This document shows positions 40,761 through 41,830 of a DNA stretch of 64,000 bases, in pieces. The notes beneath the pieces were generated by a model. That model was not told where the DNA came from. It saw only the letters and a list, made by a program, of their open reading frames with translations, and searched no databases. The stretch's first letter is position 1, and the number at the start of each line of letters is the position of its first letter. The position numbers were made by a program, and so were the translations under genes. Location: positions 71,052,001-71,116,000 of the forward strand of contig OX597823.1 of the NCBI GenBank assembly GCA_951406725.2, in the 5' to 3' direction. The DNA is from Octopus vulgaris (Eukaryota).

Positions 40761-41276
40761 TATATATATATATATATATATATATATATATATATATATA
40801 TATATATATATATATATATATATATATATATATATATATATATATATATATATATATATATATATATATTAATAAATATAAGGGTAGCAAAAAAATTCTC
40901 CGCTACCAGCAGTCTAGTGAGAAAGGAAAGAGAGTCAAAGACTATATAATATAATTCAACAATATAAGGAATGACCCTGATAGGCCATTCGACTCACTAG
41001 AAAGAGCAGCCAAACTCAAACCGCTAAATAGTTTTAATTCTGAAATTGAAAGAGAAATAAAAACATTTACCCTTTTCATCTCTGGACTATGCATAGTTTC
41101 GACAAACTTTAGTAAACAAATTAATTAAATTAAATTAAATTTATTTACAACGGCCCGGGGCTATAGCAGAAGACACTTGCCCAAGATTCCACGCAGTGGG
41201 ACTGAACCAGGAACCATGCGGTTGGTTAGCAAGCTACTTACCACACAGCCACTCCTGCACCTATGAAAGATAAGGC

Positions 41277-41348
41277 CTCCCCGGCGGGGAATCGAACCCC
41301 GGTCTCCCGCGTGACAGGCGGGGATACTTACCACTATACAACCGAAGA
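41277..41348 (-). tRNA. tRNA-Asp(GTC), gene or young retrocopy
   Basis: Minus strand TCTTCGGTTGTATAGTGGTAAGTATCCCCGCCTGTCACGCGGGAGACCGGGGTTCGATTCCCCGCCGGGGAG, 72 nt, near-identical to metazoan tRNA-Asp; acceptor stem closes with two G-U pairs; anticodon at 41313-41315. Confidence 0.88.
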
Positions 41349-41354
41349 TATCAC

Positions 41355-41403
41355 ATCCCCGCCTGTCACGCGGGAGACCGGGGTTCGATTCCCCGCCCGG
41401 GAG
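41355..41403 (+). pseudogene. 5'-truncated inverted copy of the tRNA-Asp
   Basis: ATCCCCGCCTGTCACGCGGGAGACCGGGGTTCGATTCCCCGCCCGGGAG mirrors 41277-41326; the D-arm and 5' acceptor strand are missing. Confidence 0.88.
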
Positions 41404-41417
41404 GCCTTATCTTTCAT

Positions 41418-41830
41418 AGGCGCAGGAGTGGCTGTGTGGTAAGTAGCTTGCTAACCAACCACATGGTTCCGGGTTCAGTCCCACTGCGTGGAATCTTGGG
41501 CAAGTGTCTTCTGCTATAGCCCCGGGCCGACCAATGCCTTGTGAGTGGATTTGGTAGACGGAAACTGAAAGAAGCCTGTCGTATATATATATATATATAT
41601 ATATATATATATATATGTGTGTGTGTGTGTATGTGTGTGTCTGTGTTTGTCCCCCTAGCATTGCTTGACAACCGATGCTGGTGTGTTTACGTCCCCGTCA
41701 CTTAGCGGTTCGGCAAAAGAGACCGATAGAATAAGTACTGGGCTTACAAAGAATAAGTCCCGGGGTCGAGTTGCTCGACTAAAGGCGGTGCTTCAGCATG
41801 GCCGCAGTCAAATGACTGAAACAAGTAAAA
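41418..41830 (+). mobile_element. tRNA-derived SINE, family 1, directly downstream of the partial tRNA-Asp
   Basis: Full-length match to the family; its 5' part is mirrored at 41151-41262. Confidence 0.9.

Follow-up and report, generated by a model that had tools for sequence, protein, structure and literature searches.

The locus around the palindrome at 41151-41529 of the window (the whole 64-kb stretch of DNA that was analysed) combines a pre-tRNA-Asp copy, a SINE and a fragment of a hammerhead repeat, and its origin probably involved two steps. First, a pre-tRNA-Asp/SINE fusion would have been placed in a (TA)n run by a LINE-type reverse transcriptase; a hammerhead insertion of Penelope type would have followed, and its fold-back repair would have mirrored 175 bp of the fusion. 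The first step, a chimeric retrocopy of the U6/L1 kind, is well supported; the second is what we infer as the likeliest origin of the mirrored arm. The anatomy of the palindrome is real in the assembly.

The arms, 41151-41325 and 41355-41529, are 175 nt each, 98% complementary with 4 mismatches, and enclose a 29-nt loop. An earlier note on this DNA had described an inverted repeat of about 175 bp with few mismatches; this stands, with the arm end (given as 41326) and the spacer (given as 28 bp) each corrected by one. The palindrome is the strongest close inverted repeat within the window, with 86 inverted 20-mers against 39 for the runner-up. The minus strand reads in the order 6-nt leader, tRNA-Asp(GTC), 11-nt trailer, CATA, SINE nt 1-111, 280-nt hammerhead-repeat fragment and (AT)n, while the plus-strand side holds tRNA nt 24-72, the identical trailer and CATA, and the full SINE with its tail. 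The features are as follows.

40758..40869, no strand: (AT)n microsatellite that borders the hammerhead-repeat fragment on its 3' side; likely the target site
40871..41150, minus strand: 3' part of a hammerhead repeat, 5'-truncated, 280 nt, beginning inside stem II; the monomer of ~473 nt is high-copy, tandem and of type I
41080..41100, minus strand: half hammerhead, comprising GAAAC, stem III, the TC cleavage site and the 3' strand of stem I
41151..41261, minus strand: SINE nt 1-111, left arm, abutting the hammerhead fragment without (AT)n between; 3/111 changes from the subfamily majority
41262..41276, minus strand: left-arm copy of the pre-tRNA trailer (11 nt, cut after three T) followed by CATA
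41277..41348, minus strand: complete copy of tRNA-Asp(GTC), likely a pseudogene, carrying C3T and, in the A box, A9T (ARAGORN, Rfam)
41349..41354, minus strand: pre-tRNA 5' leader, 6 nt; leader and tRNA nt 1-23 make up the 29-nt loop
41355..41403, plus strand: tRNA-Asp nt 24-72, right arm, without the A box; one change
41404..41418, plus strand: right-arm copy of trailer plus CATA, with the same junction as the left arm
41419..41846, plus strand: full-length SINE with internal (TA)n(TG)n, A-rich tail and then a short (TA)n (by subfamily comparison)

The layout bears out several parts of the earlier note: the 5' 110 nt of the SINE on the minus arm (nt 1-111 as measured), the truncated tRNA, same linker and full SINE of the plus arm, and a half hammerhead in an AT-rich tail that ends in a long (AT)n run.

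Each of the 4 mismatches between the arms deviates from the family majority in one arm only, and the arms have a common junction and no shared private change. Together with SINE variants that are subfamily-wide, this points to duplication from an existing chimera, at or soon after its insertion. The shared SINE variants were also considered as a date for an older resident SINE, a use rejected for the same subfamily-wide distribution. The junction 17-mer is found in the two arms alone when the whole 2.8-Gb assembly is searched; having no further genomic copies, the composite does not constitute a multi-copy SINE family; it is single-copy and likely inert. Any target-site duplication around the whole unit is masked by the microsatellite targets and the rearranged 5' end. 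Two distributions of changes are left unexplained by the two-step model and weigh against it: the left arm carries 6/204 and the right 3/410 (p=0.066), and the loop carries 3/29 against 4/350 in the arms (p=0.011). Among public sequencing runs, the best contained 0.38 of 64 words from the right flank. Four runs examined over 41660-42490, with SINE contigs dominating, gave no contig across the SINE end and neither an insertion nor an empty site; one of their contigs matches 41866-41991 with 0 differences and another 42070-42332 with 5.

ARAGORN calls a tRNA-Asp(GTC) cloverleaf at 41277-41348 on the minus strand, the sole tRNA within the 64 kb, and Rfam RF00005 scores it at 52.7 bits against a cut-off of 29, so the complete tRNA-Asp of the earlier note is confirmed. 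Its description as a real tRNA is not, as the copy has 2 changes from the genome majority sequence, C3T and A9T, the latter in the A box, and lacks a terminator. The first run of four or more T on the minus strand is the T5 at 41063-41059, whereas T>=4 occurs within 25 nt in 28/29 distinct non-chimeric tRNA-Asp gene contexts. The genome search for tRNA-Asp DNA, in which 40 of 240 candidates were scored, gave 79 matches, many of them clustered and most 97% identical to the window copy. Tandem tRNA-Asp arrays with a unit of ~158 bp were seen at G000:C5 51.22-51.31 Mb. We also note a 387-aa open frame with a reverse-transcriptase-like motif at L015:1-1161 (plus strand), adjoining a tRNA-Asp cluster; this frame, the sole one of its kind in the fetched loci, does not terminate in the SINE tail.

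The linker between tRNA and SINE measures 15 nt (11-nt trailer plus CATA) rather than the 14 first counted; it is indeed free of T4, and a minus-strand transcript would meet its first terminator at the T5 further on. The start of the trailer is found, besides both arms, at three loci. L063 is a clustered tRNA-Asp gene with a trailer one base different and a T5 terminator, and L071 and L072 are dispersed copies with the identical trailer, T5 or T4, and then a short retroelement tail. Because these three loci share the trailer with T4-T5, the linker is best read as a pre-tRNA 3' trailer cut in its terminator U-run. A fourth locus, L080, has a trailer one base different, T5, the same CATA and a SINE. 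Leaders similar to the 6 nt of the window are found only at L063, L071 and L072 (1-2 changes). CATA, ATA or A stands before many subfamily SINEs and in three of the four other tRNA-Asp/SINE fusions, and CATA is therefore likely the SINE RNA's own leader. The window tRNA-Asp is likely a retrocopy; leader and trailer suggest an RNA intermediate for this copy, and such an intermediate is demonstrated for the fusion class described below. Searches of the assembly for the source locus gave nothing beyond L063 and the two retrocopies, L063, one base off, being the closest to a gene with an exactly matching trailer. A strict pattern of any tRNA followed by TTTCATA and the SINE head finds the window locus only; it misses L080, which has a T-loop change. 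Breaks at tRNA-Asp nt 23/24 recur without inversion in L080 and L011, which weighs against the two-step model. Breakpoints at this position were seen at L011, L080, L115 and window 41355; L011 has nt 1-23 duplicated before its leader, and L080 begins at nt 24.

The SINE belongs to a subfamily with at least 168 exact-motif matches, both arms among these, and presumably resembles published octopus SINEs; the LINE partner of its tail may be RTE-type. The right-arm copy differs from the subfamily majority at 0/163 plus 2/187 positions (2/350), and its 3' end and tail are intact, resembling other subfamily copies. No T4 occurs on the plus arm up to 41860.

The tail fragment of 280 nt is the 3' part of a high-copy repeat whose siblings are 90-95% identical; 2550 first-look candidates were found, 40 were scored and the best 29 fetched. 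The siblings contain tandem units of ~473 nt with a full type I hammerhead (e.g. L037, L052, L061), and most of those shown terminate in (AT)n; a tRNA head is absent from all 29 fetched. The fragment has 8/280 changes from the nearest subgroup majority, and siblings stand at a similar distance. The ribozyme core of the window copy is incomplete: CUGANGA and the 5' strand of stem I are missing, and the SINE stands in their place. The minimum-free-energy fold of an intact sibling hammerhead forms stems I and II and not stem III, which was assigned by motif inspection. Joining at the ribozyme cut site was considered and rejected, as the tail-SINE junction lies ~65 nt upstream of that site. Tandem units and type I hammerheads fit the family to the non-LTR retrozymes, and its inversions and (TA)n targets suggest mobilisation by a Penelope-like element; the PLE-type tail proposed in the earlier note, read here as retrozyme-like, is supported.

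Close inverted repeats occur in 14/29 of the hammerhead siblings, a selected sample being the best of 40 scored, against 0/44 SINE or tRNA-fusion loci (p=2e-7; k-mer tests), which sustains the earlier link between inversion and insertion. L120 was scored as 0 once inspection had shown a head-to-head pair of SINEs flanking (TA)n. The sibling L041 carries an inverted copy of nearby DNA outside the family, and at L041 and L038 such inverted copies of neighbouring non-family DNA lie next to (TA)n. Across L034-L062, inverted hammerhead-family pieces frequently stop at unit position 394-399, where a TA-rich sequence may act as a second site of priming. Two siblings, L036 and L057, have a 5' truncation into (TA)n near the same point as the window fragment.

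Other hammerhead repeats are found in the window. At ~25950-26400 (minus strand) and 47870-48430 a tRNA-like head, (AAT)n and a type I hammerhead repeat are each accompanied by an adjoining inverted 3' piece. A second hammerhead-like family lies on either side of the locus, at 40536-40757 and 41996-42261, the latter copy having an internal inversion with an 8-nt overlap that resembles twin priming. The earlier note had seen in the locus the architecture of the tRNA-headed hammerhead family. BLAST of the tail against the two window copies of that repeat gave no match at E<=0.01, the ribozyme core is missing, and a Pol III stop lies ~190 nt before the end of the tail. The composite is likely not a nascent tRNA-headed hammerhead SINE, and it is not expected to propagate, because its A box is damaged, the ribozyme core is absent and the T5 lies ~190 nt before the 3' end of the tail.

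In the proposed first step, a reverse transcriptase would copy the SINE RNA from its tail to its 5' end (the CATA leader) and the cDNA would continue onto a pre-tRNA-Asp, from the oligo(U) 3' end up to the 6-nt leader. The junction could be made by a template jump or by earlier RNA ligation, the two being indistinguishable, and the product would be inserted in a (TA)n run. In the second step, the (TA)n immediately upstream would be cut and the left end would prime a 280-nt cDNA of the hammerhead repeat, halting in stem II. The bottom-strand 3' overhang of the right end, terminating at the leader, would fold back with a 29-nt loop, pair at tRNA nt 24-25 through an AT microhomology of 2 nt and be extended; the hairpin would then open at SINE nt 111, and its end would be ligated to the hammerhead cDNA. 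This fold-back geometry places the full tRNA on the arm with the short SINE and the truncated tRNA on the arm with the full SINE, matching the observed layout. The 29-nt loop and the direct joining of the hammerhead tail to the SINE are as expected for fold-back; the AT pairing is presumed, and the microhomology assumes that (AT)n preceded the leader. The order of the two events is likewise tentative, no empty or intermediate allele having been seen; arms without a shared private mutation fit one event or two close ones equally. The Penelope-type step is favoured because inverted duplications are carried by many hammerhead siblings and by no SINE or tRNA locus in the comparison above.

One event might suffice, if a LINE cDNA of the SINE and then the pre-tRNA self-primed by fold-back at the leader, the opened hairpin being joined to a pre-existing or captured hammerhead fragment. 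The geometry would be identical to that of the two-step model, and arms without a shared private change are equally expected; the fragment could have pre-existed, given that L036 and L057 are truncated near the same point into (TA)n and that the distance of the tail from its subgroup majority is typical of siblings. We consider a single event rather unlikely, as fold-back is absent at the 35 other tRNA fusions and 15 subfamily SINEs examined, no (AT)n or target DNA remains between tail and SINE, and inversion is habitual in the hammerhead family and not in the SINE. The origin favoured in the earlier note, a Pol III read-through tRNA-SINE RNA, from a distant gene or a resident terminator-less chimera, that was reached by template jump after the hammerhead tail and inserted inverted, appears improbable. 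A resident chimera could be read through, since the fused trailer retains only T3 and the plus arm lacks T4 to 41860, and the left arm ends 6 nt upstream of the tRNA, a plausible start site. Yet no tRNA gene with this SINE behind it is found elsewhere in the assembly, the linker corresponds to a trailer cut in its terminator, and the sister copies L071, L072 and L080 keep T4-T5. An RNA end at SINE nt 111 would be unexpected, and the other arm would need a separate loss of leader and nt 1-23, which fold-back supplies free.

The near-intact tRNA (52.7 bits) might instead be taken for a resident tRNA-Asp gene that received a SINE in its terminator and was rearranged later, and SINE insertion into a T-run is plausible, as one copy in the L025 array looks like just such an insertion into a tRNA gene. 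We find this very improbable: only a 6-nt leader is left, common to dispersed retrocopies of the same gene lineage, the tRNA is alone in 64 kb whereas most tRNA-Asp genes are clustered, and 5'-truncated and spliced members show that the fusion class is RNA-derived. An assembly or read fold-back artefact seems the most improbable reading of all. No read or contig was seen bridging the loop or either junction; against an artefact, 4 positions distinguish the arms, each off the family majority in one arm only, the left arm has 29 nt absent from the right, and the flanks are unrelated.

The first step of the two-step reading is supported by a class of pre-tRNA/retroelement fusions. Exact patterns found tRNA-Asp plus the short tail at 9 loci, tRNA-Asp plus the SINE head at 5 loci and T-loop plus trailer plus tail at 25 loci, 5 of the last being common with the tRNA-Asp plus tail set; the reversed control of each pattern gave 0. 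The second pattern, close to the genome search for tRNA-Asp, linker and SINE head that the earlier note proposed, thus gave four tRNA-Asp/SINE-head loci besides the window locus and no source locus. A relaxed ARAGORN scan recognises a tRNA in 16/25 of the T-loop loci (Asp, Glu, Gly, Ser, Arg, Lys, Leu and one unassigned); among the remaining nine, inspection shows five tRNAs with an intron or a 5' truncation and a small ambiguous group of four. Fusions beyond the window locus number at least 37, or at least 33 minus the ambiguous four (L011, L022, L130 and L132 included). For L069, L074, L076, L077 and L011 the trailers are identical over 8-12 nt to those of different genes, and the upstream similarity to those genes stops after a short leader; at 6 of the 16 fusions tested (L070, L073, L075, L081, L082, L022) the exact trailer match among fetched genes is <=4 nt. 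Many fusion copies are inserted straight into microsatellites and several are 5'-truncated. For tRNA-Leu(CAA), 9/11 matches contain the intron and both intron-less ones are tail fusions; two intron-bearing copies are also fusions. The precise loss of the intron therefore argues for an RNA template, and with the leader and trailer at the window locus it corroborates the earlier view that the tRNA part came via RNA.

Several observations accompany this class. The fusions (L069-L082, L098-L122, L011, L022, L130, L132) include several isotypes, and their partner is a ~55-nt tail, another tail or a full SINE. The ~55-nt tail usually has a constant start point and is also present alone in (TA)n. The tRNA-Leu(CAA) fusions L131 (=L105), L132, L123 (=L098) and L130 occur both spliced with the trailer retained and unspliced, and the spliced, trailer-bearing ones suggest that splicing can precede 3' trimming here. 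L116, L117, L118 and L121 have a near-identical tRNA-like 3' half plus tail, on two contigs with similar flanks, and may represent either segmental copies or an incipient family.

Precedents exist for each step, and the combination is a variant on known processes. Chimeric U6/LINE-1 and U6/SINE retrocopies, described also for the L2 and RTE clades and for AnolisSINE2, are attributed to template switch or RtcB ligation (PMC4476161, PMC6789731). As in those chimeras, a Pol III small RNA is joined in sense at its oligo(U) end and the retroelement gives the 3' end. Here, in contrast, the head is a pre-tRNA with leader and gene-specific trailer, which makes single copies traceable to the genes they came from, and it is joined either to a full SINE or to a short tail whose start is fixed; the window copy, in addition, is mirrored and has a third element attached. 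Human pre-tRNA retropseudogenes are cited in PMC4476161. Mammalian tRNA/LINE-1 chimeras, reported at 21 loci, likewise have a tRNA co-inserted with a retroelement (10.1101/2025.02.02.635956), but they are mostly antisense tRNA halves ascribed to twin priming, whereas the fusions here are sense, trailer-bearing and often full length, two of them with intron; the locus table of that source may include trailer-bearing cases. Non-LTR retrozymes and Penelope-like derivatives have monomers of 150-450 bp (PMC7229834, PMC8557442, 10.64898/2026.07.22.740005), and inverted 5'-truncated copies and a (TA)n bias are traits of Penelope-like elements (PMC8557442). Like these retrozymes, the tail family has tandem type I hammerhead units, is targeted to (TA)n, and includes 5'-truncated copies and inverted copies next to one another, while its monomer of ~473 nt is slightly longer, the window copy is a coreless fragment, and the inverted neighbour of that fragment is foreign tRNA-SINE DNA rather than family sequence. 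For L1 insertions in human cells and tumours, adjoining DNA is described as duplicated in inverted orientation at the reciprocal end, with a small hairpin and TA/AT homology of 2 bp (10.1101/2024.12.14.628481). The window locus similarly joins an insertion to an inverted duplication of adjoining DNA; it differs as a genomic copy with a Penelope-type insert, deduced from its sequence.

It is thought that tRNA heads are added to LINE tails by template switching, and what is on record is mostly finished SINE families. Accounts of SINE birth place a small-RNA head on a mobilisable LINE-derived 3' end by template switch (PMC5786205, PMC7245038), and head addition is also discussed in PMC4758252. 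The first two of these papers work back from families that have amplified, whereas most of the fusions here are intermediates present as single copies, without amplification. A literature search, with most subscription papers outside its reach, listed no paper describing sense pre-tRNA fusions with trailers in this group.

The window locus is itself a one-off, of interest because it leads to a class of fusions that can be counted and that likely shows the first step of SINE birth, so that the bearing on SINE origin claimed in the earlier note is retained. With at least 33 unamplified fusions bearing gene-specific trailers, the source gene is traceable for each. The fusions also inflate tRNA gene counts, 16/25 passing the relaxed ARAGORN scan, and the palindrome adds a likely case of a Penelope-type insertion duplicating adjoining DNA. 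As a more speculative extension, which we advance with considerable doubt, pre-tRNAs may routinely be spliced at their U-tail onto ~55-nt tail or SINE RNAs, perhaps through ligation of the RNAs ahead of reverse transcription, giving hundreds of source-traceable proto-SINEs. If so, these would include spliced-but-untrimmed intermediates, the window locus would be a LINE-made chimera reworked by a Penelope-type insertion, and L116-L118 with L121 may be a fusion beginning to amplify; the rate of SINE birth, the amplification filter and the order of pre-tRNA processing would then be readable from DNA.
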